A stretch of 64,000 nt of DNA. Origin: Pecten maximus. Its lineage: Eukaryota. Location: contig NC_047024.1 of NCBI RefSeq assembly GCF_902652985.1, forward strand, positions 36,456,001-36,520,000. The letters are read 5' to 3'. Made by a program: the position numbers and the translations under genes. The notes under the pieces were generated by a model that was not told the DNA's origin, did not search any database, and was given only the letters and a program-made list of their open reading frames with translations. Shown piece after piece: positions 16,247 to 62,650 of the stretch (its first letter is position 1; every line of letters begins with the position of its first letter).

Positions 16247-19200
16247 TATGACGGGGAGTTATAGTAACATGATGGTGACGACGAGGAGTTATTAAAGTAA
16301 CATGATGGTGAGGACGGGGTGTTATAGTAACATGGTGGTGAGGACGGGGAGTTATTAAAGTAACATGGTGGTGAGGACGGGGTGTTATAGTAACATGATG
16401 GTGAGGACGGAGAGTTATAGTAACGTGATGGTGAGGACGAGGTGTTATAGTAACATGATGGTGAGGACGGGGAGTTATAGTAACGTGGTGGTGAGGACGG
16501 GGTGTTATAGTAACATGATGGTGAGGACGGAGAGTTATAGTAACATGATGGTGAGGACGGGGTGTTATAGTAACATGGTGGTGAGGACGGGGAGTTATAG
16601 TAACGTGATGGTGAGGACGGGGTGTTATAGTAACATGGTGGTGAGGACGGGGAGTTATAGTAACATGGTGGTGAGGACGGGGAGTTATTAAAGTAACATG
16701 GTGGTGAGGACGGGGTGTTATAGTAACATGATGGTGAGGACGGAGAGTTATAGTAACGTGATGGTGAGGACGAGGTGTTATAGTAACATGGTGGTGAGGA
16801 CGAGGTGTTATAGTAACATGATGGTGATGACGGGGTGTTATAGTAACATGGTGGTGAGGACGGGGAGTTATAGTAACATGATGGTGAGGACGGGGAGTTA
16901 TAGTAACATGATGGTGAGGACGGGGAGTTATAGTAACATGGTGGTGAGGATGGGGAGTTATAGTAACATGGTGGTGAGGACGGGGTGTTATAATAACATG
17001 ATGGTAAGGACGGGGAGTTATAGTAACATGGTGGTGAGGACGGGGAGTTATAGTAACATGGTGGTGAGGACGGGGTGTTATAGTAACATGGTGGTGAGGA
17101 CGGGGTGTTATAGTAACATGATGGTGAGGACGGGGTGTTATAGTAACATGATGGTGAGGACGGGGAGTTATTAAAGTAACATGATGGTGAGGACGGGGTG
17201 TTATAGTAACATGGTGGTGAGGACGGGGTGTTATAGTAACATGATGGTGTGGACGGGGTGTTATAGTAACATGATGGTGAGGACAGGGAGTTATTAAAGT
17301 AACATGATGGTGAGGACGGGGTGTTATAGTAACATGGTGGTGAGGACGGGGAGTTATAGAAACATGATGGTGAGGACAGGGTGTTATAGTAACGTGATGG
17401 TGAGGACGGGGAGTTATAGTAACGTGATGATGAGGACGGGGTGTTATAATAACATGATGGTGAGGACGAGGAGTTATAGTAACGTGATGATGAGGACGGG
17501 GAGTTATAGTAACATGGTGGTGAGGACGGGGTGTTATAGTAACATGGTGGTGAGGACGGGGTGTTATAGTAACATGATGGTGAGGACGGGGTGTTATAGT
17601 AACATGGTGGTGAGGACGGGGAGTTATAGTAACATGATGGTGAGGACGGGGTGTTATAGTAACATGGTGGTGAGGACAGGGTGTTATAGTAACATGGTGG
17701 TGAGGACGGGGAGTTATAGTAACATGATGGTGAGGACGGGGTGTTATAGTAACATGGTGGTGAGGACGGGGTGTTATAGTAACATGGTGGTGAGGACGGG
17801 GAGTTATAGTAACATGATGGTGAGGACGGGGAGTTATAGTAACATGATGGTGAGGACGGGGAGTTATAGTAACATGATGGTGAGGACAGGGAGTTATAGT
17901 AACATGGTGGTGAGGACGGGGAGTTATAGTAACATGATGGTGAGGACGGGGAGTTATAGTAACATGGTGGTGAGGACGGGGAGTTATAGTAACATGGTGG
18001 TGAGGACGGGGAGTTATAGTAACATGGTGGTGAGGACGGGGTGTTATAGTAACATGGTGGTGAGGACGGGGAGTTATAGTAACATGATGGTGAGGACGGG
18101 GAGTTATAGTAACATGGTGGTGAGGACGAGGAGTTATAGTAACATGGTGGTGAGGACGGGGAGTTATAGTAACATGATGGTGAGGACGGGGAGTTATAGT
18201 AACATGGTGGTGAGGACGGGGTGTTATAGTAACATGATGGTGAGGACGGGGAGTTATAGTAACGTGATGGTGAGGACGGGGAGTTATAGTAACATGGTGG
18301 TGAGGACGGGGTGTTATAGTAACATGATGGTGAGGACAGGGAGTTATAGTAACATGGTGGTGAGGACGGGGAGTTATAGTAACGTGATGGTGAGGACGGG
18401 GAGTTATAGTAACATGATGGTGAGGACAGGGAGTTATAGTAACATGGTGGTGAGGACGGGGAGTTATAGAAACATGATGGTGAGGACAGGGTGTTATAGT
18501 AACGTGATGGTGAGGACGGGGAGTTATAGTAACGTGATGATGAGGACGGGGTGTTATAATAACATGATGGTGAGGACGAGGAGTTATAGTAACGTGATGA
18601 TGAGGACGGGGAGTTATAGTAACATGGTGGTGAGGACGGGGTGTTATAGTAACATGGTGGTGAGGACGGGGTGTTATAGTAACATGATGGTGAGGACGGG
18701 GTGTTATAGTAACGTGATGGTGAGGACGGGGAGTTATAGTAACATGATGGTGAGGACGGGGTGTTATAGTAACATGGTGGTGAGGACGGGGAGTTATAGT
18801 AACATGATGGTGAGGACGGGGTGTTATAGTAACATGGTGGTGAGGATGGGGAGTTATAGTAACATGGTGGTGAGGACGGGGTGTTATAGTAACATGGTGG
18901 TGAGGACGGGGAGTTATAGTAACATGATGGTGAGGACGGGGAGTTATAGTAACATGATGGTGAGGACGGGGTGTTATAGTAACATGGTGGTGAGGACAGG
19001 GAGTTATAGTAACATGATGGTGAGGACGGGGAGTAAGTTATAGTAACATGTGGTGAGGACGGGGAGTTATAGTAACATGATGGTGAGGACGGGGAGTTAT
19101 AGTAACATGGTGGTGAGGACGGGGTGTTATAGTAACATGGTGGTGAGGACGGGGAGTTATAGTAACATGATGGTGAGGACGGGGAGTTATAGTAACATGG

Positions 19201-20378
19201 TGGTGAGGACGAGGAGTTATAGTAACATGGTGGTGAGGACGGGGAGTTATAGTAACATGATGGTGAGGACGGGGAGTTATAGTAACATGGTGGTGAGGAC
19301 GGGGTGTTATAGTAACATGATGGTGAGGACGGGGAGTTATAGTAACGTGATGGTGAGGACGGGGAGTTATAGTAACATGGTGGTGAGGACGGGGTGTTAT
19401 AGTAACATGATGGTGAGGACGGGGAGTTATAGTAACATGATGGTGAGGACAGGGAGTTATAGTAACATGGTGGTGAGGACGGGGAGTTATAGTAACGTGA
19501 TGGTGAGGACGGGGAGTTATAGTAACATGATGGTGAGGACGGGGAGTTATAGTAACATGGTGGTGAGGACGGGGTGTTATAGTAACATGGTGGTGAGGAC
19601 GGGGAGTTATAGTAACATGGTGGTGAGGACAGGGAGTTATAGTAACATGATGGTGAGGACGGGGAGTTATAGTAACATGATGGTGAGGACGGGGAGTTAT
19701 AGTAACATGATGGTGAGGACGGGGAGTTATAGTAACATGATGGTGAGGACGGGGAGTTATAGTAACGTGATGATGAGGACGGGGTGTTATAGTAACATGG
19801 TGGTGAGGACGGGGAGTTATAGTAACATGGTGGTGAGGACGAGGAGTTATAGTAACGTGATGGTGAGGACGGGGAGTTATAGTAACATGATGGTGAGGAC
19901 GGGGAGTTATAGTAACGTGATGGTGAGGACGGGGAGTTATAGTAACATGGTGGTGAGGACGGGGAGTTATAGTAACATGGTGGTGAGGACGAGGAGTTAT
20001 AGTAACGTGATGGTGAGGACGGGGAGTTATAGTAACATGATGGTGAGGACGAGGAGTTATAGTAACGTGATGGTGAGGAAGGGGAGTTATAGTAACATGA
20101 TGGTGAGGACGGGGAGTTATAGTAACGTGATGGTGAGGAAGGGGAGTTATAGTAACGTGGTGGTGAGGACGGGGAGTTATAGTAACATGGTGGTGAGGAC
20201 GAGGAGTTATAGTAACGTGATGGTGAGGACGGGGTGTTATAGTAACATGGTGGTGAGGACGGGGAGTTATAGTAACATGATGGTGAGGACGGGGAGTTAT
20301 AGTAACATGATGGTGAGGACGGGGAGTTATAGTAACGTGATGGTGAGGAAGGGGAGTTATAGTAACGTAATGGTGGGG
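16247..20378. repeat. 30-bp minisatellite, ~135-140 copies (~4.1 kb)
   Basis: Unit atggtgaggacggggagttatagtaacatg with a few recurrent variants; source of the MVVRTGSYSN ORFs. Confidence 0.98.
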
Positions 20379-23300
20379 ATGAGATGACGGGATGTGATGG
20401 GATGAAGGAGAGGGTAATTATACAGGAAAGATGGAGAATTATATCTAAATATTGATATAAGAGTTAGGATAGGGTAAAGTTCATATAATAAATCTGGGGA
20501 GGGAGAAGAAATAGTTTGTATGATAATGAGTGTGGGGGGGGGGGAGGAGTATTTGATGGAACAGCAAAGTTCGGTGTCAGTCTTGGAGATGTATACCCAG
20601 GCTACTGGATTCCTTTGTGTCTGGCAGTGTTGGACAGGCTATTGTGCCAGGACAGCCTCCCTGTATACTATTGTACACTGTGTGGCTGCTTTGTCACCTC
20701 TGACCCTCCGGCTGTAAGCACAATGGCATTGTTTTCTTAGGCCATGGACTGTTTAAAATCAAATGTTTGAAGAATGATTCAAATACATGATACTTGATGC
20801 TAAATATAATCTTTTGGTTGGCTTCGTATCCGAGACAACCAATTCAAAGATAGGTGCGGTGTTGTTAAGTACTCGTTTAACGGCAGCCGTCCCTACCTAT
20901 AACATATAATCTGCAGATTAAATATACTCCAGAAAATGTCTAGAGAATATGACAGATGTCCATGTTTACATACTTACCAATAAATTCAAACAAAGAGACA
21001 AGCGTGATGTCATATCTCCTCTGGATAAGGCTAGGCTATGTATAGGTAGATGGAGAGAACACTGCTGTTTGTATTGGTCGAGGCGGCCCAGGCCGACATA
21101 TGGCGTTTCCTGGCTATACACACAATGCAGCTCAAGGTAATATACTTTTGCACCTTGTTCCACTTTATGTTACTAGGAAACCAAACAATGACACAAATCT
21201 AGTCATAAAAAACTCGGGTTTTAAATCTGGAGGATGATATATACACAAGATGGTTACACACAGGTAAAAACACAATGCTCTCTGTTCCATTGTTTGATGT
21301 CACTTTATTTCAGTCATTTCCTATATAAAGAATGTAGACACAACAAAGAGTTAAACATTCTATGAAAAAATGCTTTGATGAAATTATATAAACTATATTA
21401 TAAAAGATTACAATTGTGCTATTTAACAGATCTAGGCAAGCAATTAAGACTTAATTTGTCTGACAAAAGAAATTATAAATTATTAATCTATTTTACATTA
21501 TACAGATGGATTTGATTTTCAGCATTGTCAAGGTATTGAACTACTGCTTATATTGAAATATAAGCTCAGTATTGATCTCGGTTGGTTATACATGAATCAT
21601 CCGCTTCATAGTCATTCATGAAAGAACTATAGATGCATTTACAATGTAATGAAACATGAGGTTGTTTTTAAGTGAAGTCACCCACACGTATATATTGTGG
21701 CAGGGTTAGAACCAGATGACGATTCTCTGCGTTCATTGGTAACAAATCCTGGCTGGTCGGTATCCCTTGGGGTTAATAGAGCGGCCTCGGAGGAAACCTG
21801 ACTAAGTCGCACGCATTAAATATAGATCTGTTAGATGTATGTTGCCTGCTATGGGGGCTGATAGCACTATTGATACTAGGTAAACAAAATAATGGTGTCC
21901 AATAAAAAAAACAGATTTGTATAAAATTATAAAATACTCACTTTCTGTTATATAAATATATTGAATTATTACAGAATAAGTGTATGGATGTGATATTTAT
22001 CATTCTCTTGTCTCCACACTTGAATTTGAATGATTTTTGTCTATATGGATTATGTAACTGCACATACCAATATATAATGGCCAATCAGCTGGTTTTGGTA
22101 GATTATATTTCTGTTTACCATGTATTTATCCAACATGGTGATAAAAAAAAATGTATCTGCCAACTTGAGACAATATTGGTGTACAAATGACACATTGATC
22201 GGAGCAGATGACCAAACCATTTATATAGGCTTTGTTGTAAAAAAGTGAATCACACGTACCCAATCTATATGAATCACTGGTATGACTTGGAAACTAGTCA
22301 CTTACAGATCACTTCTATATATGGGCATATTTAATACAAGATGCTAAGGTGCCATATAGTGCAGTAGTTATTTTGAAGATCATTCTTCATAGGTAGCACT
22401 TAAATGCATCTTACAGCTAGTTGTATCTGTAGTTTACGTTAAATTGTCTCTTGGTGACTTTCTTATCTGTACATTGGATTACTAATTCCTTTGGATCATT
22501 TCATTTTCAGTAAGTACTAACTTTCAGAATTGAAATTGTTCCTAATATTTCTCAGTGTTGGTTTGTAATTTTGTTAATATAATTAGACTAAAACTTGTTA
22601 ATATAGAATTCCATTTTTAGGTCCAAAATTTGTTATAGGAGTTAAAAATAATAAGGTTGCACCAAATTTGGGGATTTTTTTAACTTATTTGACAAGTACC
22701 AGTAAGCTGAAATTTGCTTCAAGCTTGTTTTTCTTTAAGTTTTGCTCTATATACTTTATTTTAAATTAATATATTATGTTTTTACTTTATTCATAAATTG
22801 CCAAATATTTAAATGTCCTTGAAATCATGCCATTCTTTGTGACCTTAATAGATTATTTTTAAATCAACCTGCTTTGTAATGCTATTTTATTTGTTTCTAT
22901 TTAGGTAATCTGTTTCCAGGACATGGATGCTGTTGTATTTGTAGTAGTTCTCATGGCTTCATTAGTGAGCGGTCCTCATGAATATTTTAACAAAATTGAG
23001 AATGACTAAACTGACACTGAAGTTGACCGTTTTATGCAGTCATTTACTCGTATTTGATTTTCATTCAAGTACCCCTCTGGTTTCTCTGGAATCAATTAAC
23101 TTTCAATCTCGTGACATAATTATGTGACTTTTGATTACAGGAAAGTTTTTAAATTGTTACATTTATAAGATAAAATTCCATCATGGCTCTATTTGTAATT
23201 TTCTGGATATTGATTTTGATATAAGTATTTAAGATATGTTAATGATTCATTTTATCAGAAAAAGAAATGATCCTTTATTTTCTGCACATCTGATGTTTTT

Positions 23301-23996
23301 TATCTTTCATGTTGACTCATCATATATTTTTTATTCTAGATTAAGGAGTTATTTAAAGATGCTACATGGCCGACAGTGTATACACTGCTTCTCTCAAAAT
23401 GTTTAAAATGACACCATCGAGTAGATCTAATTAAGACCAGCCAATTACAAAAATAATAAAAACCATGAAAAGTCATAATAAGGCTGAAAGTTACATAGAA
23501 AATATGGAGGCTCTGCACAATCTGCTGGATGCAATAATTATTCAGTCACTTTAAATTTCAAAGATTAGATTAGAAGTCTTTGGAGGGGTGTAATAGCATT
23601 AAGTATGTATAGCCTATTGTTGTTTTCAATCAGTCATAATTACTCTTTGAGACGTAGCACCTTTGAATAAGAATTATTCGAAACTATAACAGCATATAAT
23701 ATCATCCCTACTACAGATAAGTGATAATAAATAAAAATAAAAATTGGACAACACATCTTTTCATCTCTGAAGAATCGCCAAGATGTGACGAAAGTGTTAA
23801 GAAATGTTTTTCTTTTTCTTACATATTTGTATAGACAAGATATTTCTGTGACTGCATGATGTGCTGATAAATTTCTGAAATGTACATCGTTTTGTGTTTG
23901 GTTTGACTTGGTTAACTTATATGGAATTTCCCATTGTATCTTTACAGAAATGAATGAACGCGGAGGATCACAACCTGTTGACTATGTCTCATTATA

Positions 23997-25692
23997 ATGG
24001 AAATTGAGCCATTCTCCTTCATCAGAAGTCCTGCAAAAGGTGATTTAGAGACATTTTCGTGCATCAGAAACCAAAGTGATTTGGAGAAGTTTTCCTACAT
24101 ACGAAGCCCTCCAGAAACGTTTTCGATACCTTGTGTGCCTGTGAGATCCGAGCCCAGCCCCTCTCGTCCACCGCAATCTAGTCAGAGATTTTCCACCCCC
24201 AATATGGTGGTGGATCTTCAGTCTCAGAACCCCTGTGTGGTTACTGCAGATCCATCTGTGCAGTCGTCGCCACATGACTACAAGCTTCTTCCCCAGGAAG
24301 TGTCTCCGCGAACTGCATCGCATGACTACAAACTTCTGCAGCAAGACATATCACCCCGTTCTGCGTCACATGACTACAACAAACCATTGTTGACTGACGT
24401 TTCCCCAAGGTCAAATGACTCCTACAAACCATGTCCCCAGGACATTTCCCCAAGGTCAAATTTGAGTGAATGTAACAAACGCCAGCAGCAGCAAGAACAG
24501 TTCTCCCCAAAGGGAGGCTCCCTTGAGTATGAACACAATCGTAACCTATCCCTACGCACTTCTTCTCATGACTACCGTCTTTTGCCACCAGAGGGCATGA
24601 TGACACCAAGTCCTGATAACCCACCCTCCATTGACCACTCTGACATCCCTCAAAATGAAGTATTATCTTTAAAAGGCATGAACACTCCTAAAAATAGCCC
24701 CCCACAGCTGTCTCCGAAACAGCTTGACTTGGACCATGGGCGGTTTGATTGTGGTCCAAAACAAATGGATTATGATAATATGGATCAAAACAGCGGATCA
24801 GACCAATCTCCGTGTCAGACTCCAGAGAAGCATCGGTCCCGGCGTAAGCAAACTATTGAAGACATTGTGCGCCGAATGAAAGGATCAGAAAACGGTTACT
24901 ATAGTGACAGTGAAGAAGAGGAGGAAGATGATGGGGAGGACACTCTGAATGGATCTATTTCCATGGATATGCACAATGGTGACCCAAAACTGGGTGATAG
25001 TATGTGCGGTATGAGGTGTGGGCAGGATGAAGTGGATGGGGCTCCTATGCAGATATCAGGCCTTAAGGCTAGCGACAAAGACAGGCAACCTTGTATTAAC
25101 AATGGGTCCGCAGGCAGTGGAACCATGGGAAACGGTCTGGATGGAATGTCCTATAAAAACGGCAGCATTTCCTTAGATACAGAGAACATCCAACCAGACC
25201 ATATGCGACAAATGGAAAATGGCAAGGACAACAAAGATGGTTGTGAAAATAAAGATATGTCACCTGAACGACAACAGATCAATGCTATCATGGACAAAGT
25301 AGCTGAGATCACAGGAGGGAACAAATCGCAAGACTTCAACACTCCCAAACAGAACGGAAACTGGTTTCACGGAGCATTCAATAGCCTTCCTTTGTTTCCC
25401 TTTCCTCCTAGTCCCTTGGAACATCATCTCAATCCAAACTTTCTTCCGATGTTTGACGGCAAATTTCCTTCGTCACAAGAGGTTGAGAAAGATTATCTCA
25501 AATGTCAATTTTGTGAAAGGACATTCCGACGCCAAAAGAACTTAGAAAACCATATCGAGAACACTCACCACGGGAAGACCACAGCAAGAAGAAAATCATC
25601 AGATAGCAATGACATGTATTTCAAATGTACACATTGCCCCTATACCACCAAGCATCAGAGTAACCTGTACGTCCATCTTCGCATACATACTG
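23997..25692 (+). CDS. C2H2 zinc-finger transcription factor, first coding exon (two C2H2 fingers)
   Basis: Acceptor tttacag| at 23947; long non-repetitive ORF; fingers CQFCERTFRRQKNLENHIENTH and CTHCPYTTKHQSNLYVHLRIH; donor G|GTAAGT after 25692 splits the HTG|ERPY linker. Confidence 0.9.
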
Positions 25693-27866
25693 GTAAGTGC
25701 TTGATAGTACAATGTCTGCCAAGGTCAACCTGTATAAATTACCCTGCATATCATAGGTTACATGTCTTGATGAATTGTGTCTATTCTTTCTTATACACAT
25801 ACAAGAAACATTGTTTTGACTATGTAACACAATGTGCTGTAAAATCAAATTTCTTCAAGGTAACGAAGGCATCGGACTTAAGGCAGAGGTAACTTTTTAA
25901 GCAATATGTAAAAGTGATTTCAACTGATCCATCGATAGAAAAATATTTTGACACAATTAGCATTTACCTTGCTAAAAACAATTAGTTACTAATTTCAGTA
26001 TCCTGATCAAGTTCATTAACCTCGGGGAATAATCAAGCTAATTAATCTTGAGGAAATTTATGTTGATAAAATTGTTTGTGAGTTTCAATGTCCTTGGAAC
26101 TGCTAAAGTAAAAAAAAAATTGTCCAGGGATTACATTAATTACCTTCAGCACCTGTTTTAATGGTTCCAAGTCAAAGATGAGGTTAAAATAAGGTGTGAT
26201 ACAGATACTTCACCAATCTTCAGTCCGTGTGTCCTTATCTAGACTAAATTTTTTCTTTTAAACAGCTGACAGAATTTTGAAAACCTTCAGAAATGTTTTA
26301 ATTCTTCATAAAATAATGAAAAGTTAGTTAGTTAATCTAAAGATTTTTTCCCAAGTGGGTTTACTGGCCAAGGAATTTCCTTTTTTCTTTTGGTTTTCAT
26401 TTTGATCAGTAAAAAGCAGTGTGGTTTGAAATTAATAGTCGTTAAGAATTGGATATGAAACTGAGGCTTCCTGCTATTGGGTCCTCAAGATGATGATTAA
26501 ACATCATTCATAACAGAATTGTTCAAATGACCCAACTCAATATTCACATTTGTTGGTGCAAAAATATTGTATTTTGTTGTAATTTCAAAAAGCTAACCTA
26601 AAATTTCAAAACAGAATACAAATTTATAAAATTAACTAAATTTTAGTGAAAATATTATAGCTTGATTTATATTTGTTGTCAATTCAACTTAAAAAATTGA
26701 TTAACAATTTTAAATTCATTTAAATCGTCATATATGTCAGTTTCTAGAAAATAAATTAGAAAACTTAAATTGTGTATGGATTGAATGGGAAAAACTTGTC
26801 TGTTTTATGAAACTTGTGGAACTCTGCAGAAGTCTGATCACATGTTTCTGATTACGTAAGATTGCAGGAATTTAATGGTGGCAAAAACTACCCATGTTTA
26901 ACCGGTATTGTTTTCATTCTATTATTCTGTAACATATTGATCCTCGTATGATCACTGTTCGTACAAGTCTAAGGAAAGATAACTCTTGCATGTTACATCT
27001 CTGGGCTTATTATTCAGTAATTACACTGGTCTGAAATTCAATCGAAGGAAATGTGACAGACTTTAATTGCTCTTGAGTTTGGAAGATTGCCAAGCCGGTT
27101 TTTCTCAAACTCTGCAGCTACTCTAAAACATTTTAATTACAGTGGTGCATTTCTCAGTGTTTGATAAAAGTTGTGTTTAGTGATGGAGGTTTTGGGGTGG
27201 ATTGATATTCACAACCATAGTTTTGTGTCATTTGATTGAAATGCAGATGTTGAAATATGGTTGTTTCACTTGTTAGACAAGCTAAGACACCCTCTATAAG
27301 TAAAGTAATTAAACAGCTTGCAGTGTTTGATGTCACGGAGATTGATCATGTGACTAAGAAACAGACCCTAACTAAAAGCCAAGAATCCATCACCCCTGCT
27401 AACCCTAATGTTCTCGGTGCTCCTCTGCCGGGTTTGTGTGCAGAGAAACTATTGTTTGTAGGTTCAACAATGGAACTACAGCGGATTGCAGCCTTGCGGA
27501 ATTGTTTTTACACCACTGCTGCAGTGCCTGAAAACGCAGTGTGCATCACTTGCAGGTTTTCATTAAAACATGTCAATTTTAAGTTGGCTTCTTTAGACCT
27601 CTGTATCTCCTGATAGTTAATTTGCACTTACGAAGCTTGTGCTTCCTGAACAACAGAGTACCCTTAAAATGTCCATGGAGAGATTGAGTCAGGTATTTGA
27701 CTGTCGCTTCCTTCTTCTGTGAACTGTTATTTCCCATCAGAGCCTCCAGATAGTACAGTTGAATGTGCCAATACACAGATGACATAATTGTTTTGTAAGG
27801 TGTTGTATTTTCCAGCATGTTTGTTTCCTTGATTAAATGGTGTGGGACTTGTACCTTAAGGTGTTA

Positions 27867-28228
27867 TACTATCAGTCACCAATTCACTGTAATTCTATCG
27901 AGTCAACTTGACATTAGCTCATGACTTTACTATCAGTCACCAATTCACTGTAATTCCGTCGAGTCAACTTGACCTTAGCTCATGACTTTACTATCAGTCA
28001 CCAATTCAATGTAATTCTGTCGAGTCAACTTGACATTAGCTCATGACTTTACTATCAGTCACCAATTCACTGTAATTCCGTCGAGTCAACTTGACCTTAG
28101 CTCATGACTTTACTATCAGTCACCAATTCAATGTAATTCTGTCGAGTCAACTTGACATTAGCTCATGACTTTACTATCAGTCACCAATTCACTGTTATTC
28201 CGTCGAGTCAACTTGACCTTAGCTCATG
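27867..28228. repeat. 61-bp intronic tandem repeat, 6 copies
   Basis: atcagtcaccaattca at 27871, 27932 and onward; gacatt/gacctt variants alternate. Confidence 0.95.
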
Positions 28229-28596
28229 TCTTTGGCAGATAGTGAAAAATGCAGGATTTAAAATTAAAAAATAATTTTTTGAAACTAAAATATGTGAAAA
28301 TAATGCTTCACATTAAATAATAACATCTTTATACATTCCAATAGGATAACTATACTTTAAAATTGTAAGATCTTTTCCTTGGTGACCCATTAAACATCAT
28401 TTCACCCTTTATTTTGGAGGAATTTGTCTAGATATTTGATCATTGAATGATGGAGGCACTATATTCTTACACTTTGTTGAAACATTAAGTGACTACTACT
28501 GTCACTCTGAGCTGTTAAATGTTTACAAAGTGCAGACGAACTTAACTGTGTAGTGTTGTATTACATCTAGCTGATTGTGTATTTCTTATGTTACAG

Positions 28597-29660
28597 GAGA
28601 GAGACCGTATATCTGTGGAGCCTGTGGGGTCCAGTACAGCCAGAGTCACAGTCTAAAGAGTCACATCATCAACAAACATGATGGAATCATGTCGTATTAC
28701 ATCAAGGAGAAGCGTAACCGTTCCCCACGAGGTATGGGCTACTTGACCCAGGTCATACCCGACATGTACAAGATCTCCCCACAGCAATCCATGATGCCAC
28801 ACAATGTTCACAGTAACCATGGAAACCAACAACAGTCACTCCTGATGCCACAACACAACATTCCAATGCCACCACATCCACATGTCATGACTTCAATGCA
28901 TCCACAAGTCATGACCTCGCCCAACCACCAAGGTCAAGGTCAGCCAATGACTTCTCCCATGCAGAAGATGATGATGTCTCCACAACAGCAACAGCAACAG
29001 CAGCAGCAGCAACAACAACAACAGCAACAACAAATGGGAAGCCACCTCCAACAGGAGAATCGTCCCACCCACATAGGAGGGGAGCGTAATCAGCAGTCCC
29101 ATCCTCACAATATGCAGCAGAAATCTAGTCCCAACTACTATGCCAATGGGTTTCCATCACCTAACTTTCAGAACAACTTTCCACCACAGTTCAAGGTGCA
29201 CCAGCAAGTGGCACCGGTGGTGGAGGAACAGCCACTGCCACTGGTTACGAACACTACCACCAAGTCTCAGATGCCACTACAGGAAATTCGCAACAACCAG
29301 ATGGAGGAGAGCGGCATGAACAACCATGGTGCTATTGATCTCAGCAAGAAGGGCATGCCAAGTCACACTCTCCGTGACAATGGTCATCTTGAGGCTCTCA
29401 AGGCTCTGGAGATGTCAGGACTGGGGGAACGCCCAGAAAAAGATCATAAGTGCACAGAGAAGGGCACCGGAGAATGTGCTAATTGTGTTCATGAGTCTAA
29501 ACTCCGTACACTAAGACTAAATGTGGTCCGTATGCTCAGTATTCTGGTCCCAAATCTGAATTTCGAGGAGAAGGGAATCAGCGCTGATGGTGACTCGGTG
29601 GATGAACTCCTACATGATGTCATAGAAAGCAATATGCAGGAGGAGGAGATGAGTGAGTGA
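28597..29660 (+). CDS. C2H2 zinc-finger transcription factor, last coding exon (third finger, polyQ, C-terminal helical segment); spliced CDS 2760 nt, 919 aa
   Basis: Acceptor ttacag| at 28596; phase-1 join restores the TGERPY linker; finger CGACGVQYSQSHSLKSHIINKH; Q17 at 28983-29033; TGA at 29658-29660. Confidence 0.92.
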
Positions 29661-49748: not shown

Positions 49749-51140
49749 AAAACACGTGTACGATATTCCTCTCATTAGTCCGGACATACAAAACCACATG
49801 TACGACTCCTCTAATTAGTCCGGACTTACAAAACCACATGTACGATTCCTCTCATTAGTCCGGACTTACAAAACCACATGTACGATTCCTCTCATTAGTC
49901 CGGACTTACAAAACCACACGTACGATTCCTCGAATTAGTCCGGACATACAAAACCACATGTACGTTTCTTCTCATTAGTCTGGACTTACAAAATCACATG
50001 CATGATTCTTCTAATTAGTCCGGACTTACAAATCAACATGTACGTTTCTTCTCATTAGTCTGGACTTACAAAACCACACGTACGATTCCTGTAGTCAGTC
50101 CGGACTTACAAAACCACATGCACGATTCCTCTCATTAGTCCGGACTTACAAAACCACACGTACGATTCCTCGAATTAGTCCGGACATACAAAACCACATG
50201 TACGTTTCTTCTCATTAGTCTGGACTTACAAAATCACATGTATGATTCTTCTAATTAGTCCGGACTTACAAATCAACATGTACGTTTCTTCTCATTAGTC
50301 TGGACTTACAAAACCACACGTACGATTCCTGTAGTCAGTCCGGACTTACAAAACCACATGCACGATTCCTCTCATTAGTCCGGACTTACAAAACCACATG
50401 TACGATTCCTCTCATTAGTCCGGACTTACAAAACCACACGTACGATTCCTCGAATTAGTCCGGACATACAAAACCACATGTACGTTTCTTCTCATTAGTC
50501 TGGACTTACAAAATCACATGTATGATTCTTCTAATTAGTCCGGACTTACAAATCAACATGTACGTTTCTTCTCATTAGTCTGGACTTACAAAACCACACG
50601 TACGATTCCTGTAGTCAGTCCGGACTTACAAAACCACATGCACGATTCCTCTCATTAGTCCGGACTTACAAAACCACATGTACGATTCCTCTCATTAGTC
50701 CGGACTTACAAAACCACATGTACAATTCCTCTCATTAGTCCGGACTTACAAAACCACATGTACGATTCCTCTCATTAGTCTGGACTTACAAAATCAAACG
50801 TACGATTGCTCTCATTAGTCCGGACTTACAAGACCACATGTACGATTCCTCTCATTAGTCCGGACTTACAAAACCACCTGTACGATTCCTCTCATTAGTC
50901 CGGACTTACAAAACCACATGTACGATTCCTCTCATTAGTCCGGACTTACAAAACCACATGTACGATTCCTGTAGTCAGTCCGGACTTACAAAACCACATG
51001 TACGATTCCTCTCATTAGTCCGGGTATACAAAATCAAACGTACGATTCCTCTCATCAGTCCGGACTTACAAAACCACATGCACGATTCCTCTCATTAGTC
51101 CGGACTTACAAAAACACATGTACGATTCCTCTCTAGTTCG
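49749..51140. repeat. 40-bp minisatellite, ~35 copies, with higher-order structure
   Basis: Unit tacgattcctctcattagtccggacttacaaaaccacatg. Confidence 0.97.
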
Positions 51141-51844: not shown

Positions 51845-54800
51845 TTTTTTTTTTATTTAAACATATTTCATTTGTATCAATATATACAAGAGGATTGGGC
51901 ACAAGTTTTCAAACTTATATGAAGCCCTTTCCTAATTATCATGATTTTTTACAATTTTTATACAAGATGACATGACATTTGAAATATTAACAATTATATT
52001 TGGGGAGAAAGAGAGAGAGAGAGGGAGAGACTGAGAGAGAGAGAGAGAAACAGAGAGACAGAGAGACAGAGAGAGAGGTATTACGATTCGAATTTATTCA
52101 AATATTCAATTGATAAATTTAGTTTAATTATTTACTAAGCAAACAAACAAATCCGATTTCGATAGCAGAAGATTAAACTGTTCGCTGCACAAAAACACAC
52201 TGCTATTTCTAATGTTCGTTATATCCTGTTCCATGGTAAGCTTTCTCCGTTCGATCCATTGCCTTCTGGAAAAAATATTCGTTTCTCTTGCGCTATCGGA
52301 ATCGGAAGAGACTTTATAAATACATTTTTTTTAACTGTCAATATATATATGTATGTATAATATTTCACAATACTGATTAAGAAAAGAGAAAACGGGGAAT
52401 TAAAATCTTCTTGAGTCAAGAATGTATTTCTGAGTGATTTGGCTTATCATAAAATTATCTTCAATGGATAAATCATTGTTTCCATATAATAATAGTTGCA
52501 GGTCTAGTGGCATGAAATTGTTTAGATTTCGGAACAATTCGATTCTCTGTTCAAAGTAATTTTGACAAATAAAGAAGTAGTGGTATGCATCCTCAATAGG
52601 ATGTCCACACTGACAATGGCGATAATCAATAAGATGTGATTGGAAAAGGTCATTTTTTAGAATACTACATTTGTTTCTTAATCGCGCATGCAATATATTA
52701 GATTTTCTATTTCCAACTGAGTAATGGGTAGGTACTTGTGTTCTATTTGAGATCGATTTTTTAAATACTGAATATGAAATACTATGTCTAATCTCTAGAT
52801 CTGAAGTCTGAAATTCGGTAGAGAGTAATTATTTGCATCACGTAGGTTATAATGTGAGTTTTCAGATACCAAGGGAGGTAATAAAGTGGATAAGTAATTA
52901 GGAGTGAGTTGGTTAGTAATTTTATAGAATAGTTGTAGTTTTCTTCTAGAACGACGATTTACAAGAGGTTCTAATCCACTTTCAGAGTATAATGAGAGCC
53001 TGCTAGCAAAGGAAGGTGATCCGGTAATTATTCTTGCAATTTCTAAATTTAATTTTTCCAAATTATCTGCATCACTGAGAGAATATCCATCCCAAACCTC
53101 GCAACAATATTCAAATAAAGGCAGAATATATGACTTGTAAATTTTATACAGAGTTTGTCTATTTAAGATATATTTGAGCTTTCTGAGAATACTTACTTGT
53201 TTAGATACATTTTTGCATATGCTTTCAATGTGTCGAGACCATTTACAGTTTACATCTAATGTTACGCCTAGGTGTTTGTGGTGATCAACAAATTCTACAT
53301 CTATATTATTAAATCTAATGTCTATAACATGTTCATGTTCATTTTTTGAAATTAGTAAGGCTTCCGTTTTCAGAGGGTTAAATTTCACCAACCAGGTTTC
53401 TGCCCAATTTTGAATTTTTGCTAAGTCATTATTTATTTTAATTTCAATTTCAAATGGTGATCGACCAGAACATAATAAAGAGGTATCATCAGCAAATAAT
53501 TTTGAAAGACTATCGAGATTATCAGATATGTCGTTTATGTAAAGAATAAAAAGTAGTGGGCCCAATACAGATCCTTGTGGCACGCCAGCATTAGTAGTCC
53601 TAACGGAAGATTTACTGTTTCCTACAAAAAACATGCTGTTTCCTGTTACTTACATAATTTTTTAACCAAATTAGAAGTTTCCCATTAATTCCATAATTCG
53701 CTAACTTTACATACAGTCGCTTATGCCACACACGATCGAACGCTTTGGAGATATCACAAAATACTAGACAGGTTGGTTGATTTTTTTCCAAATTTTCACA
53801 TAAGGTATTGTAAATTTCTATCATTTGATGGACGGTAGAATGACCAGATTGGAAACGAGATTGGTATTTATAAATAAGTGAGTTTTCAAGCAAATAGTTA
53901 TTCAAATATTTAACTACTAAACGTTCAAAAACTTTACCGATAGTGCTTAGTAATGAAATAGGCCTATAATTAGAAGAAACGTGTTTATCCCCTTTTTTTG
54001 AATAATGGCATAACTATTGCTAATTTCCAGTGTTCCGGGAAAATACCAGTATCAAGAGAGTATCTAAATATTAATGATAATGGGTAGGCTATAGAAAATG
54101 CTGTATTTTTTAACATATTGTGGCTAATTCCGTCGTGACCTACAGCTTTGTAAAGAGATAAAGATTTAAGTATGTCGGCAATGTCGCTGAGTTGAAAATG
54201 TATGTCTGATATCGTAGCGTCAGTCCTTAGTTCGACCTCTGGCTCGTCAATGTCTGTATCGTCAATGGTAGAAATGGAAACAAAGTAATCATTAAGTATA
54301 TTGGCTTTATCGACGTCTGTCATTACAAGATTTCCGTTTGTATGTACAAGCGGTGGTATAATATTAGCAGTGTCAGAAGTTTTTATTAATCTCCGAACAA
54401 TTTTCCAAAAATTACGTGGATTTGAAGAAGAATAACGATCTAGAATACCATTTATATCCGCATAGAAAAGTTCTTAGTATGTTTTTTAAGATTGTTGACA
54501 TGGTTACGTTGTTTCCGAAAATTCGTCAAATTTTTTACAGAGCGATTTGATTTAAAAACTTTTAAAAGTCTGTCTCTTTTCCTAATTTCTCGGCGAAGGT
54601 CAGAATTAAACCAGGACTTGTCGTTAGGTCTAATTATAACAGTTTTAGTAGGTATGCACTCACTGGCTATGTCCAAATATTTATCAGTAAATTTTTTACA
54701 CATTTCGTCTGGGGAGTGCGTCATAGAGAACAAGTCAACCCAGTCCGTATCGTCTAGTTTGTTATTAAACAGTTCATAATTTGCTTCATTATAACATCTT

Positions 54801-55362
54801 ATAATTCGTTTATACGTCCTTGTAATATTAGTCCCTACTGTTAGTTCTATTGTCGTCGCTTTATGGTCAGACAGGTCATCGTCAATGTCGATTACTTCAG
54901 AAAAGTTATACGTGCACGTGTCCGAGATTAAGATGGGGTCTAGTAGGGTGGAACTCGTGCGCGTCGTGCGCGTAGGTTTGTCGATCGTGTTTGTCATGTT
55001 AAAAGAGTGGATGATATCGTAAACAGCGTGTGTGTTTTCTACAGTTAACATATCAACATTTATATCTACAACTAATATAATATGAGGAGTTTCCTGAATA
55101 GCAGTGTCAACAGAGTTACGTAAATGGTTCCAAAATGCATGTGCGATATTTGGAGGCCTATACAGAGTACACAGAAGATATTTTTTTGATGGAAATTGAA
55201 TCTCTGTCCAAATTACCTCGCCCACTTGAAATTCTAAGTCATCTCTACGCCGGGTGCACAAAATACTGGATGTACATGTATACACGACTATCCCCCCTCC
55301 CGGAGTTCCCCGGTCCTTACGGTATAATTTATAACCACCCAGGAGTATATCAGCGTCATTAA
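51845..55362 (-). mobile_element. CR1-group non-LTR retrotransposon (LINE), decayed; 3' part with most of the APE endonuclease, RT, C-terminal Cys/His motif, 3' UTR and A-tail
   Basis: Frameshifted ORFs: YRKDR..GGG..YRPP..DINVD..SDH (APE); DISKAFDRVWH, GVPQGSVLGPLLF, LFADD (RT); CQCG...HYFFIC; poly(A) at 51845-51854; (GA)n at ~52005-52077 in the UTR. Confidence 0.95.
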
Positions 55363-56098
55363 GGGTAATAGGTAGTGGTGTAACATTGAAAGTTTTAAAA
55401 AATGATAATTTGTTGCATGATTGTATAACATACACATTTTATATATTAAAACGATTGTTAATTGAAGCTGTACACAAATATTAAATGAAATAGTAAAAAA
55501 TATGGTGGGAAATTGAAAATACTTACTTTTTGTGTCTTGAATAGGATTGAAGCATACGAAATTGTAAAGTGTTGCAACTGTGAAAATAAAAAGTTGATAT
55601 TATATTTCAGAGGCTATTAAAACCATAAGGCTATATAAAATATTCAAATAACAAGAAACAATTATAAAACGGTATCAATTTAGGTAACCACATTGTTTCC
55701 AAGTAGCCATTTTTATTTTAATTGAAGGGAAATAACTCTTATGAACTACTTTTTTTAAAATAAGTATGGAGAGTCACGATTGATATAAATTGTCATTGAT
55801 ATAAAATATATTTTACAAGAAGACCAATTTAGCCATAACCTCTTGTGTTATCCTATTGCAAAATTTTTTGTTATACTTTTATTATATTTCTGGTATATTT
55901 CTTCACTATTGTAATACCATACTTAACCATTTCTTTAATACATGTACTATGTAATAATGTCCACATAATTGACAATACAATAGTTTAAAATTGAAACATA
56001 AACATCACAATTATCATGTATAAGGTGTGTTTTTTAAATATGTGTGTCAATTTTAAATCTTGCTTATATTTGTACCTTTACATTCATTGATTTATTAC

Positions 56099-56337
56099 TT
56101 ATAAATCAATGAATTTCACTGCTGAAGCCATGAAGTCACCATAAAGGTTGTCTACTTCATAAGCTTCCTCCTCCCCCTCGTATAACACCTCATACACTGC
56201 ATTCTTTGCGCCGTCTTTTCCTTTCAACACATCCGTCACGCTTCCAGTAACACCACTTTTTAGTGCCACTATCATCAACCACCCACTCATGTAAGATAGT
56301 TCGCCCTACGAACTTCACGTTGGTATTACGTCTTTGT
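56099..56337 (-). pseudogene. Putative terminal exon of the transposon gene encoding a Spin/Ssty (Spindlin)-like Tudor domain; one frameshift
   Basis: Acceptor tttttttattcag|; reads KFVGRTILHEWVVDDSGTKKW /+1/ TGSVTDVLKGKDGAKNAVYEVLYEGEEEAYEVDNLYGDFMASAVKFIDL*. Confidence 0.65.
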
Positions 56338-57744
56338 CTGAATAAAAAAAAAATTAAATGATAATTATGATAACTCTGTTAAAGGGCACATAAACATGCC
56401 ACATTCTGTTAAACAATATGTAAATGTGCAGTGTTGAAATACTTAAAAATACATAAATGTTTAATACGAAAACGTGTTGTACCTTGCACTGCTGTTGGAA
56501 GAGGAAGGACCAGGACTTGCTGGGGAATGCTTGTCACTTCTGTCGCATGTCTTCACCTTGGTATTACGTCTTTGTCTGAATAAAAAAATAATTACAATTA
56601 AAATTATGATAATTATGATAACTCAGGTAAAGGCCATATAAACATGCCACATTCTATTAAACAATATGTAAATGTGCAGTGTTGAAATACTTATAAATAC
56701 ATAAATGTTTAATACGAAACCTTGCACTGCTGTTGGAAGAGGAAGGACCAGGACTTGCTGGGGAATGCTTGTCACTTCTGTCGCATGTCTTCACCTTGGT
56801 ATTACGTCTTTGTCTGAATAAAAAAATAATTACAATTAAAATTATGATAATTATGATAACTCAGGTAAAGGCCATATAAACATGCCACATTCTATTAAAC
56901 AATATGTAAATGTGCAGTGTTGAAATACTTATAAATACATAAATGTTTAATACGAAACCTTGCACTGCTGTTGGAAGAGGAAGGACCAGGACTTGCTGGG
57001 GAATGCTTGTCACTTCTGTCGCATGTCTTCACCTTGGTATTACGTCTTTGTCTGAATAAAAAAATAATTACAATTAAAATTATGATAATTATGATAACTC
57101 AGGTAAAGGCCATATAAACATGCCACATTCTATTAAACAATATGTAAATGTGCAGTGTTGAAATACTTATAAATACATAAATGTTTAATACGAAACCTTG
57201 CACTGCTGTTGGAAGAGGAAGGACCAGGACTTGCTGGGGAATGCTTCTCACTTCTGTCGCATGTCTTCACCTTGGTATTACGTCTTTGTCTGAATAAAAA
57301 AATAATTAAAATTAAAATTATGATAATTATGATAACTCAGGTAATGGCTACATAAACATGGCACATTCTATTAAACAATATGTAAATGTGCAGTGTTCAA
57401 ATACTTATAAATACATAAATGTTTAATACGAAACCTTGCACTGCTGTTGGAAGAGGAAGGACCAGGACTTGCTGGGGAATGCTTGTCACTTCTGTCGCAT
57501 GTCTTCACCTTGGTATTACGTCTTTGTCTGAATAAAAAAATAATTACAATTAAAATTATGATAACTATGATAACTCAGGTAAAGGCCATATAAACATGCC
57601 ACATTCTATTAAACAATATGTAAATGTGCAGTGTTGAAATACTTATAAATACATAAATGTTTAATACGAAACCTTGCACTGCTGTTGGAAGAGGAAGGAC
57701 CAGGACTTGCTGGGGAATGCTTGTCACTTCTGTCGCATGTCTTT
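56322..57744. repeat. 238-bp tandem repeat (~6 units) inside the DNA transposon; each unit is a 93-nt exon-like part plus a 145-nt intron-like part
   Basis: Exon-like starts at 57527, 57289, 57051, 56813 and 56575 (period 238). Confidence 0.95.
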
Positions 57745-58284
57745 TTTTGTCTTGTTGGCCGTCTGGGTTTTCTTCCTTTGCTCTTGATAGTTTCTTTCTT
57801 TTCAAACTGTAAAAAAAGTCAATATATATTATATTATACTGAAAATTATCATCATAAATTTGTTGCAATCAATCTTGTTACATTTTCATGACAGACTTGC
57901 ATTGTATCAATTTAAAACAAAAATAAGTACACTTACCTTACCTATGAATTTCTACTCTTGTCTGAAATTCTTTTCTGTTCCCCATAATCATGAGAAATAT
58001 ATCCAATGCCAAATTATTTTGTTTTTCATTCATGAATATGAAAATGTGTAGCTTACCTTACCTCAATAAATGATACTGGTATATTATACAGGTTCCCTTG
58101 ACAAGTGGTTGTTGGTTACCATATTTATGAAACTTGATGAAATTAATTTACAAACTTTCAAAAGATGGACATTTAGCTAAGTGTTTTTTCTACTTTGTAA
58201 AGTAAGTAACAAGAGTTTCATAAATATGATAACAAACAGTTGATACAGTTTTCTATCGGTAGCTATAATGACTAATAAACCTAC

Positions 58285-61187
58285 CCATAGTCCAGGTTCT
58301 CTAATTCCTGTAGTAGTTTTATGCCTTGGAGATGCCAATTCTGGTAATATGGCTTTAAAGTAAAAACTTTTCAGTTTTGGCAGCATTGTATTGGTCCATA
58401 ATTGTTTGTCGACGTAAATCCTTTCCACGTGAAGTTGGTATGGATTTGTCGAGTGTACAACAAAATCTACCAAAGAGTAGTTTGCTATATTCATTTGTCC
58501 CTGTATCTGGTAGTAGTAGTTGTGGTTTTCTTTTAAGGTAAGTTTTGAATTCACAGTCTCTAAGCAAAATGACTTCATTTCCTTACTTGCTTCATTTAGA
58601 TTTATTGGCTTTTGATGAAGCAAGTTTTTGATCTCAATCAATCCAGTCTCACCATTTTTCTCTGTAACTTTTCCATCTGGACTGGTTGCTAAATATGGGT
58701 GTTCCTTACTGATTACTAACCCTACTGGTTCATGGGTTACAATTTTGTTATGGCTTGTTTTCATGTAATTCTTGTATTCCAATATGGTAATTCCTTCTTC
58801 TCGAATTCCGCGTCTGGTGTAACAATTACTAAATGGTTGCCCATGAACAAGCCTTTCCACAGCTTTAGTAACCGGTTTAGTGGGGTCTTTCTTCGTAATC
58901 AAACCGAAGTTGGACGATGTGATCCTTTTACTTCGTTCGGATTTCCAGACTTGTGATTCTGATTGCGATTTGGTTTCTTTCTCAATAAGAGCTATCTGTT
59001 GGACCGGCAAATCTACATGTTTCTGGAAATAATCCGTACACTTATTGTGAAGTTCTTTTTGCGTAATATCGGATACACATTCAAGGACATCTGGTCCATA
59101 ATCTCTTTTGGCCCTTTTTGATGACGATTGCTTGCCATTTTCTTTTTTATCTCTTTGCTTTATTTTCTGTTTTTTCTTTGGATCTTTTAGTTGAATTCAA
59201 AGCATTCTCCCTACTTTGGTACACTCTTTTGAAGTGGTTTCCTGGTTTGGAGGTTGTGCACTTTTCCCATACAATAGGAGACCACTGTGGACCGAAGTTT
59301 TTCCTTAAACACCCTCCAAAACATCTGGTATTCCATGATCCCATATTACATCTTTTGACGTATTTTCCACCATCAAACTTCGCTCGAATGGACATGAAGG
59401 ATTCCGCAAGGTTGGTACTGAAATTTCCTATCAGTTGACTACTCTTGGCAGCTATCCTGGCAAGCAGACGAGAAATGTCATGCAACATTAATTTGTCAAG
59501 GAATGATGAATAGGGCACGTCACCACGCGACTCTTCCTCTGCTTCCAAGGATGTAGTGTCATGCCATATATATGACAGCTCCTGCAAAATGTTGGTAGTT
59601 TCCAATACATCAGATGGTGATGAAGATGAATTTGAAGATGGAGATGGAGATAAAGGTGCAGCTGAAGTTGAAGGCGAATTTGAAGGCGCAGTTGAAGATG
59701 AAGGCGCGGTTGAAGTAGAAGACGTAGAAGTAAGACATGAAGTTGGATTTTTGGACTTACAAAAATCAGTACAATTTGAGTGATCCCCAAAGATATGGTG
59801 TACTGAATTAATAATGTCATGCTTCAATAGCTTCACTTTCTGATTGTGGCTCATTGTATTGTCATTTGACCTTAGTCTGATGGCACATCTGACTGAACTT
59901 GTAAGACGAACTCTCACACGTTTTGTCAGTTTGTCTTTCCCTTTGTATTGGGGGTTTTCATCAACCAGTTTTTTCAAGATTTGAACGCAGACATTTACAG
60001 ATATGATTAGCACATTCTAATTTAGTAATGTCTCTACCCCAAACCGGCACATTTTCTTGAAGTTTTTGAAAAACAGAACTATCACCATCTGCTATTACCT
60101 TGGTGTATCTGACCCCATGCAAGCTTTCAGCTTTCATAAAACCTTCCAGAATCATATCAGACTCCATGGCTTGTGAGGATTCAGTCCAATTTCTGAAACA
60201 CCGATGAGGTTTTGGAACGGTATTGGATGTGGATGCCATACTGCAAATAGAACAATGCTTGTTCCTAACACCTAAATACAACAGTTTACCGGTCTCTGCC
60301 CCAATTATAACGGCACAACCTCCCATAGCATTGTATGTGTGCTTATGTGTCCTTTTACTCCACCCGCCATCACATATGACAGTAATGCACGGTATCCCAT
60401 TGCTATAACGGCCCTTTTCCATCGCAATCCGCCTTTCTTCTGCTCCGGCCTCTAACAAGTCTTGGGTGGCCACATTCTGCCACATATCTCCAATTTCTTG
60501 CTCAAGTTTACTGAAAGTCTTCTGTGTCATTCCTGGACTATCAAGGGTACCCATCATCTCATTGAGCCTAGACAAACCTCCACCAGTTGCCATGTTGGCC
60601 CACACAGCTCTCATATTAATGTCATAATGGTGACTGGTTGGGGTGTGTAACACGGGGCTAGTTTTGAAATCAAATTTCTTTTTACATCCCTGACATTCCA
60701 CCAATATTTGGCTTGCAAGACCAAATGTAGCAATCTCTTTGACTAAACGAATGGGAGATACATCTTGGGATACTAATCTGCCAGCTTCTTGGCATAGAAC
60801 AGTGTGTTTTGTGATGTCAGCAATGTGAGTTTGCAACATTTGCAAATTGATGAGTCTATATCCTTCATTTGCAACATTAGAAACTCTGGTAAATTTGAAC
60901 TTCAAACTACTCTCACATGATGTCCGGGTTAATTTGTACAAGTCAGACTGACAGTTAGATGTAAACAACAGTGTTCTATTTCTGTGTGGTGTAACATTTT
61001 TGGCTATTTTGTATTTACGCAGAATTCTTTTTCTGAACACCTTCAATATGACTGATAAATTTGATTTGGTATTGACTTTCACTTTGTATGTTTGCTTTCG
61101 TAAACCATATAAAACCTTCCTTTGTGCACCCTTGGATCCTCCTGGAAGTCCAAATCTTTTCTTTTTTGATATTGACTTGTTAGCCAT
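58285..61187 (-). pseudogene. DDE transposase (Kolobok/'Mutator-like' type) fused to a YqaJ/lambda-exonuclease domain; disrupted by two frameshifts and a stop
   Basis: VICDGGWSKR, HCSIC..HRCFRNW, IADGDSS, KLECANH, TNLAES (DDE triad); DYGP linker; RITSSNFG, PYLATSPDG, LIEIK, YYYQIQGQM (YqaJ PD-(D/E)XK); ORFs 59961-61187, 59147-60013 and 58177-59010 lie in three frames; donor TGG|GTAGGT at 58284. Confidence 0.9.
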
Positions 61188-62044
61188 GGCTAATTACATA
61201 GTTGTAACACGCGTACGAAAAACATCTCCCACTACCTCTGTGTGCCTCCATATTTTTTTGTGACGTGTGTCATGCAAATAATTACAACAAAACGTGCATA
61301 AAAATATATTCTATACTCACCTATTTTCATATATAAACATTTAATTTGTTCCAGTGCCTGTGTATTCCAAAAACAATTATGATAAAAAAACATCTTACCT
61401 TCGTAGACGAAGTTCCCCGAATCGTGGAAACTAAGTAAGTTGTGTTCACACTCTTACAATATTTCACAAATTTAACCTATATATTGAAAGATCGGAAAAC
61501 CGGACGATTGTCTATCTGTTGATATGAAATTAAGCTAAAGGATAGCGTATAACAAATAAATGATCAACTTACAAACTCAATGAAAACTAGTTGAACTTCG
61601 AAGCAATGGCAACTACCGGGACCGAATGACTGCTATCCTGTACACAAAACGGATATTGTTACGCATAAAAAAAGGACTGAGCATACAGCAAAAAACATAA
61701 ATTTTCGTCAACCAAACTAAACATACTTATTGTATAACGATTCAAATTGTTGTAGACAAATAAAACGGATACAAATTTAATGCTTAAAATCATGTAAAAG
61801 ATTATTTTACCTACTTTCACTTTGAATATTCCTACGCCGTGTCGACCATCATCCTTGACAAGATTGTTTACATGGATGTCATCCGATATGTTATAAGTGT
61901 GTGTGTAATAAATTAAGCGCCGATGTAAAATTACACACACAGGCAAGTCTGCTTATGATCTGTTTTTACTATATACGGAGTGTTTAGGCTTCGATCGCTC
62001 TTATTTTTTTTATTGCTGATGCAAAATTCAACATGTCTCGTAAT

Positions 62045-62093
62045 CCGCCATTTTACAATTGCTCTTCAATCATGTACTATAAATGTACTTCCG
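62045..62093 (-). promoter_or_regulatory. YY1-like (AAAATGGCGG) and ETS-like (CGGAAGT) motifs; candidate transposase promoter
   Basis: ccgccatttt at 62045-62054 and acttccg at 62087-62093, ~0.9 kb upstream of the transposase ATG and within the element's 5' end. Confidence 0.3.
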
Positions 62094-62422
62094 TTTTTTC
62101 ACATGAAACATGTCACTCCTGTCTGTTTATTATAGCCTTCCAACTGCATCTGATTATATAGTTTGTAAATTTAATCAACATGATATACCAACTTTCAGTG
62201 CCTTACCTGTAAGGTGATTTTCCATTAATTATGTATTTCCTGATAATTTTTGGGACAAAAGATAAGAAAGAAACATATTTTAAAATTTTTAATTTGCCAT
62301 AGATGTCCTTATACAGCATATTTGAAAACACGGGGATACAAGTTCATGATATGTACTATTAGTTGAATTTTAATGACTAAATAAATGACACTCAGTTGCC
62401 ATTTTGAGAGTACATGATACCT

Positions 62423-62650
62423 TTAATAGAAATATCAAGGTGAGTCTCGGAAACACAGACAATATCATAGTCGGACGATACATTTTCTAGTTGTGATAGC
62501 TTATTTCTAAGACTACGGATGTTTAAATGAAAGACAGATATAGAATTACTTTGATCTACAGGGCCTGGGTTTGGGTGTACGTCGTTACATGATAGTAGGA
62601 GAAGTTGTAATATTAGTAGGAAAGAAGAGTTATTGGTTACGCTAGATTAA
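62423..62650 (-). mobile_element. 5' part of the same CR1-group LINE: 2A-like leader and N-terminus of the APE endonuclease (not in the ORF track); true 5' end not determined
   Basis: Manual translation LLILQLLLLSCNDVHPNPGPVDQSNSISVFHLNIRSLRNKLSQLENVSSDYDIVCVSETHLDISI. Confidence 0.9.

Follow-up and report, generated by a model that had tools for sequence, protein, structure and literature searches.

Several mobile elements carry modules that read histones, among them the chromodomains of chromovirus integrases and the PHD finger of RAG2, and these have been proposed or shown to guide the enzyme on chromatin. The locus described here resembles them in that a candidate reader module is tied to an integrating enzyme; it differs in fold family and in element class, the module being a Spindlin-type Tudor domain and the enzyme a cut-and-paste transposase. 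In the available part of their description, Kolobok transposons are defined by TTAA duplications, RR..YY ends and a DDD/E transposase with a C/DxxH signature; KolobokE is set apart by a lambda-exonuclease-like nuclease that follows the transposase (PMC9587614). As for Spindlin1, the accessible portion of the structural account gives F141, W151, Y170 and Y177 as the K4me3 cage, D184 as the residue that grips H3R2, E142 and D189 as anchors of the H3 amino end, and pocket 1 as the reader of methyl-arginine (PMC3967050).

We analysed a window of 64,000 nucleotides from Pecten maximus (contig NC_047024.1, positions 36,456,001 to 36,520,000); coordinates below are those of the window unless a locus is named. 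The element under study and its parts are as follows.

55363..62422, minus strand: KolobokE DNA transposon of 7,060 bp, dead copy, with ends common to other copies and TTAA flanks
62423..62426, unstranded: TTAA target-site duplication, 5' side
55359..55362, unstranded: TTAA target-site duplication, 3' side
62409..62422, minus strand: 5' terminus, a short inverted repeat, imperfect, with AGG here and GGG in three other copies
55363..55376, minus strand: 3' terminus, CCC at the end
58285..61187, minus strand: coding exon 1, DDD/E transposase and YqaJ-type PD-(D/E)xK nuclease, ending EPGLW at a GT donor
57673..57806, minus strand: exon 2 of 134 nt, entered in phase 0 and left in phase 2, coding for a basic linker rich in serine
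56481..57743, minus strand: 238-bp tandem array, 5.3 units
57527-57435, 57289-57197, 57051-56959, 56813-56721 and 56575-56483, minus strand: five 93-nt phase-2/2 exons from the array
56076..56337, minus strand: last coding exon, one Spin/Ssty-like Tudor domain, stop codon at 56101-56099; this copy alone has a break of frame near 56250
55363..55577, minus strand: 3' untranslated exon; the intron before it begins 23 nt behind the stop

The transposon sits inside a LINE endonuclease ORF, split into ORFs 62646-62392 and 55438-54452, and the empty-site form is present in DNA contigs of three runs. The LINE is itself decayed (52400-55438 and 62392-62646) and retains a reverse transcriptase (PF00078) and an endonuclease-like frame. 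Elsewhere, the window holds two long minus-strand frames of a flavin monooxygenase gene (PF00743; 42875-45556), plus-strand exons of a C2H2 zinc-finger gene (23982-29660), a 40-bp minisatellite of 28 copies (50004-51133) and a long, G-skewed short-period repeat that gives rise to a spurious 1,405-aa frame (16246-20463).

Besides the TTAA duplication, the element has termini of the form AG/GG...CC (5'-RR, YY-3') and a DDD/E transposase with the C/DxxH signature. Exon 1 matched PF20700 at E 1.8e-71 and, for the YqaJ nuclease, PF09588 at E 5.9e-11, and it retains the catalytic and zinc motifs (60380, 60095, 60017, 59416, 58683 and 58638; DGGW, DGDSS, CANH, NLAES). The nuclease behind the transposase is the feature shared with KolobokE, and a sister family with near-identical copies holds both in a single open frame of 968 aa. 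Judged by its duplication, ends and domains, and by a by-eye likeness to two KolobokE rows in the supplement of PMC9587614, the element is classified as KolobokE. It departs from that family, as far as the available part of the paper describes it, by a spliced C-terminal Spin/Ssty-like domain: the word Tudor does not occur in the paper's main text, nor do Tudor or Spin in its four supplementary files. The present copy is decayed in exon 1 as well, an A run near 59974 being one base too long and eight bases near 59143 being absent, and the five other copies aligned each have private lesions of their own.

Splicing was read from public-run contigs aligned to copy L021; the four runs are guessed to be RNA or are unlabelled, and resemble two data sets filed twice. 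A GT-AG joint between exon 2 and the domain exon appears in all four, and another between exon 1 and exon 2 in two of the four, using the GT donor of exon 1. The 3' exon was placed by a loose end at L021:1642, found in four of four runs, which matches 55548-55577. The last coding exon thereby runs 23 bases beyond the stop, to 56076, where it had earlier been given as 56099..56337. In the genomic copies the succession of phase 0, 134 nt and phase 2 keeps transposase and domain in one reading frame. Only one type of contig, from X12/X13, bridges exon 1 and the domain, and an A run of its exon 2 is one base too long, which would throw the domain out of frame; we therefore infer the fusion from these phases instead of seeing it in one contig; that the full transposase-nuclease-domain protein is made is very likely. 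The exon structure is old, as judged from splice sites conserved in sister families about 50% alike: GT directly follows EPGxW in 12 of the 13 loci having the motif, and an identical phase-2 acceptor stands 25 nt ahead of the domain in 6 of the 22 loci with a located domain start, most of the other 16 having failed the strict acceptor rule.

The tandem array, which lies between exon 2 and the domain, duplicates the end of an exon, an intron and the start of the next exon, and represents live intron gain by tandem duplication. Each 93-nt array exon contributes 31 residues in frame, and one of them is spliced on both sides in contigs of X14/X15. The number of domain-type acceptors varies from 0 to 6 among six copies.

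A previous reading of the letters alone (hereafter the sequence-only reading) had joined two minus-strand frames into a Spindlin-like Tudor exon, described as cryptic and hidden by a frameshift. Both frames are present as placed. The frame 56378-56190 translates to ...FVGRTILHEWVVDDSGTKKW and holds the first half of the domain; the frame 56305-56099 translates to TGSVTDV...YEVLYEGEEEAYEVDNLYGDF...FIDL and holds the second. A profile from which the own-family row had been removed matched the former at E 1.7e-7 (profile positions 1-24) and the latter at E 8e-22 (positions 25-73), the next best among the 1,930 frames of the window reaching E 0.46; the Spin/Ssty likeness of the joined frames is thus beyond chance. 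A DNA search of the same genome yielded six further close copies of 97-99% identity, two of which have a common 3' flank and may be one site. The motif KKWYTG is read in a single frame in all six, and likewise in DNA contigs of both public runs that cover 56250. The break is therefore private to the copy in the window. It may be a mutation or an assembly error, given that contigs drop rare variants, that none of those listed spans the junction of this copy, and that the raw-read run X18 gave 0 reads there. A programmed or regulated frameshift that hides the domain has as its sole point in favour that both halves are open around the break; the in-frame copies refute it, the two covering runs and the two breaks already present upstream also speak against it, and we consider it extremely improbable. 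As this copy is dead and broken at two other places, the frameshift carries no biological meaning and "cryptic" is not a property of the domain.

Taken alone, the intact domain gave no Spin-Ssty match in Pfam at E<=10, only weak chromo-like ones, and falls below the PF02513 gathering score of 25 bits; a single-sequence search of the PDB returned chance matches. The proposed comparison with the Spin-Ssty profile thus failed for the single domain and succeeded for a part of its relatives, 19 of 63 of which match PF02513 at E<=0.1 (best 3.1e-7). When the 63 relatives were combined into a profile and compared with the PDB, only Spindlin-4 and Spindlin-1 fell below E 0.1 (3.5e-5 to 2.2e-4). AlphaFold2 predicted for the intact domain a five-stranded Tudor barrel with a short helix at pLDDT 90, in line with the Tudor/SH3-like fold that had been expected. 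With this model, Foldseek placed Spindlins at ranks 1-17 (best E 7.9e-3, TM 0.63; no match at E<=0.001), and VIA-align placed Spindlin-4 residues 109-177 first of 48,161 chains (Z 8.2, rmsd 3.0, 67 aligned), followed by the RDM15 Tudor at Z 7.2 and by non-reader Tudor and KOW folds at Z 5-6. A homotrimer prediction of the domain, run without an alignment, scored 0.00, and Atlas feature matches of 0.87-0.90 serve as leads only. The domain is acidic, with 14 D/E and 7 K/R in 70 residues.

Compared with Spindlin (PF02513; SPIN1, SPIN4) as far as the available part of PMC3967050 describes it, the domain is alike in fold, in its VG..I.H start and in its cage positions, and matches the L..DY helix with D184 and the acidic H3-binding face. 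It is different in having a single domain where Spindlin has three, in scoring below the Pfam cut-off and in being borne by an invertebrate transposon, with tyrosine at the position of W151, without E142 and D189, and with a GxDG insertion. Spindlins are host proteins of three tandem repeats, and here a single domain lies at the end of a transposase gene. The domain is thus Spin/Ssty-like and not a Spindlin; it probably works like a Spindlin repeat.

Alignment with the Spindlin1 residues reported in the available part of PMC3967050 places W18, Y29, Y52 and Y59 at F141, W151, Y170 and Y177, and D67 at D184; equivalents of E142 and D189 are absent from the window domain. The corresponding codons are at 56285 (W18), 56182 (Y52), 56161 (Y59) and 56137 (D67), and that of Y29 is the very codon struck by the break near 56250. 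By this alignment, unbroken copies carry a predicted four-residue aromatic cage. Five aromatics (W, W, Y, Y, Y) had been put forward as cage residues, a list that is partly off, W28 and Y48 lying outside the aligned cage. In the alignment of relatives, whose rows were chosen by likeness to the query, all four positions are aromatic in 38 of 54 (9 of the 63 rows do not cover them), and at least one aromatic is gone in the other 16, mostly at position 59. About 9 of 10 rows retain W18, Y29, Y52 and D67, and W18 is absent from two families of the Pecten maximus genome. Because of the incomplete relatives and these two families, the full cage is not indispensable. The cage residues make it rather probable that the domain binds a methyl mark. 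As to which one, the likeness of D67 to D184 of Spindlin1 suggests H3K4me3, while W18 resembles pocket 1 of Spindlin and suggests methyl-arginine, both by comparison with the available part of that account.

The domain has 61 matches in the genome (42-100% identity), and a transposase or YqaJ nuclease lies upstream in 17 of the 21 loci examined, one of these weakly. Twenty YqaJ loci were examined further: the domain was found in none of the 16 distant ones, which are 31-37% identical and do not match the window transposase, and in two of the four close ones, being absent from the close KolobokE relatives L120 and L122 within about 5.7 kb downstream. At L121:5280-5941, a KolobokE family carries a Spin-like domain in two pieces, apparently split by an intron and without the aromatic at position 59. 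One distant YqaJ element (L113, minus-strand frame 7550-5763) has no Spin domain and a PHD-finger-like motif in its place. Outside this genome there are 126 homologues, most of them ending at or near the C-terminus of the protein; PF20700 and/or YqaJ was present in 11 of the 34 scanned, and those named are from bivalves. A predicted multi-exon gene (P0021, L089:7828 to L025:8166) joins a death-effector-like domain, below cut-off, to a Spin-like exon, and 19.8 kb of its region yielded no match to the transposase or to YqaJ; it is possibly a host capture of the exon, or an artefact of the gene model.

Selection was compared among the 33 of 38 loci that are open, 25 of them distinct. Between families, pooled pS was 0.74 and pN 0.36 (253 of 300 pairs), the frame staying open, and dN/dS was 0.4-0.6 in the 19 measurable pairs. 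Coding conservation, on which the sequence-only reading had staked its proposal, is thus borne out: synonymous sites are saturated, pS being about 0.7 and pN about 0.35. Most private changes within the window family are non-synonymous, as neutral decay would give. The same reading had left open whether the module was captured or native. It is borne by the transposon and, since the splice sites are conserved across families, it is by sequence comparison native to the KolobokE clade and not recently captured.

A similar domain occurs in an unrelated transposon with 7-bp duplications and other inverted ends (L086:596-7756; also L090, L174, L077 and L083), which its signatures suggest to be hAT-like. 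Its open DDE-type frame of 1,036 aa ends in a Spin-Ssty domain that is above the Pfam PF02513 cut-off and keeps the position of D189; the match of this domain to Spindlin repeat 2 has E 6e-10. In sequence it is even closer to Spindlin repeat 2 than the KolobokE domain is, and the two transposon domains are related (HHalign 96.6%). Relatives of the hAT-like element are present in other bivalve records. Among 49 candidates the genome gave nine PF02513 matches, all single domains, and the open frames around them end in that domain. No three-repeat host Spindlin was found among these nine and the 14 matches to the hAT-type domain, which is weak evidence because the genome was searched exon by exon. 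On account of this missing host gene and of the likeness to repeat 2, Spindlins may descend from a transposon module. We consider it conceivable, though rather doubtful, that invertebrate DNA transposons of at least two unrelated superfamilies share a travelling module, the single Spin/Ssty reader, and that vertebrate Spindlins are a domesticated and triplicated form of it.

On balance we favour the view that the last exon of this KolobokE encodes one spliced Tudor domain that binds methyl-lysine or methyl-arginine on histones and tethers the transposition complex, the frameshift being private damage. In such a scheme the spliced protein would carry the reader on a flexible basic linker behind the transposase-nuclease; the reader would bind methylated lysine or arginine on histones, and would hold the complex on methyl-marked nucleosomes while TTAA is sought. 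That this binding steers target capture near TTAA sites is a more tentative idea, to which we give somewhat less than an even chance. CpG observed/expected in the flanks, a proxy that does not tell promoters from other unmethylated DNA, was 0.86 for transposons with the domain (27 flanks) and 0.85 for control transposons without it (26 flanks), so by this measure insertion bias did not differ from controls (P 0.48). The background was 0.72 (240 bins in 20 regions), from which the flanks differ at P 0.02, the bins not being independent. The count left out L026, which is the same site as L024, the 5' flank of L020, where the end is altered, L043, whose end could not be located, and any flank shorter than 400 bases or lacking a clear true end.

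The absence of insertion bias in the flank test fits an alternative in which a methyl mark is still what the domain recognises, yet to regulate the element or evade silencing and not to choose targets; the mark would sit on the chromatin of the element itself, or be the methyl-arginines of host silencing proteins. The cage evidence serves this explanation equally, W18 and the variable position 59 resemble the methyl-arginine-reading pocket 1 of Spindlin, and Piwi proteins carry methyl-arginines that are read by Tudor domains. We regard it as unlikely, given that the domain is fused to the transposase instead of being separate, as would befit a component of the transposition complex. It is also improbable, in our estimate, that the barrel is a non-reader that binds protein or nucleic acid, as does the UvrD/PcrA Tudor, with aromatics that are mainly structural. 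The incomplete cage of 16 of 54 relatives and of two families in the genome would agree with this, as would the Z of 5-6 reached by non-reader Tudor and KOW folds; Spindlin lies above these at Z 8.2, with the RDM15 Tudor next at 7.2, the conservation of W18, Y29, Y52 and D67 in about 9 of 10 rows speaks against it, and the net negative charge disfavours DNA binding. A methyl-reading Tudor domain within the transposition complex remains the reading that we prefer.

Among the literature matches listed, which cover sources other than Repbase reports and subscription journals, none describes a Spin/Ssty or Tudor domain in Kolobok or hAT transposases, and the Spin/Ssty-like domain on a Kolobok transposase is apparently a pairing without an earlier account among them. 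The frameshift is ordinary decay and of no interest in itself; the finding is the domain and its spread over two types of transposon. With both types carrying it, and no three-repeat Spindlin found, the origin of the vertebrate Spindlins becomes directly testable. If the domain does read methyl marks, a cut-and-paste transposon would possess a built-in means of sensing chromatin state, which can be tested with a protein of 78 residues.
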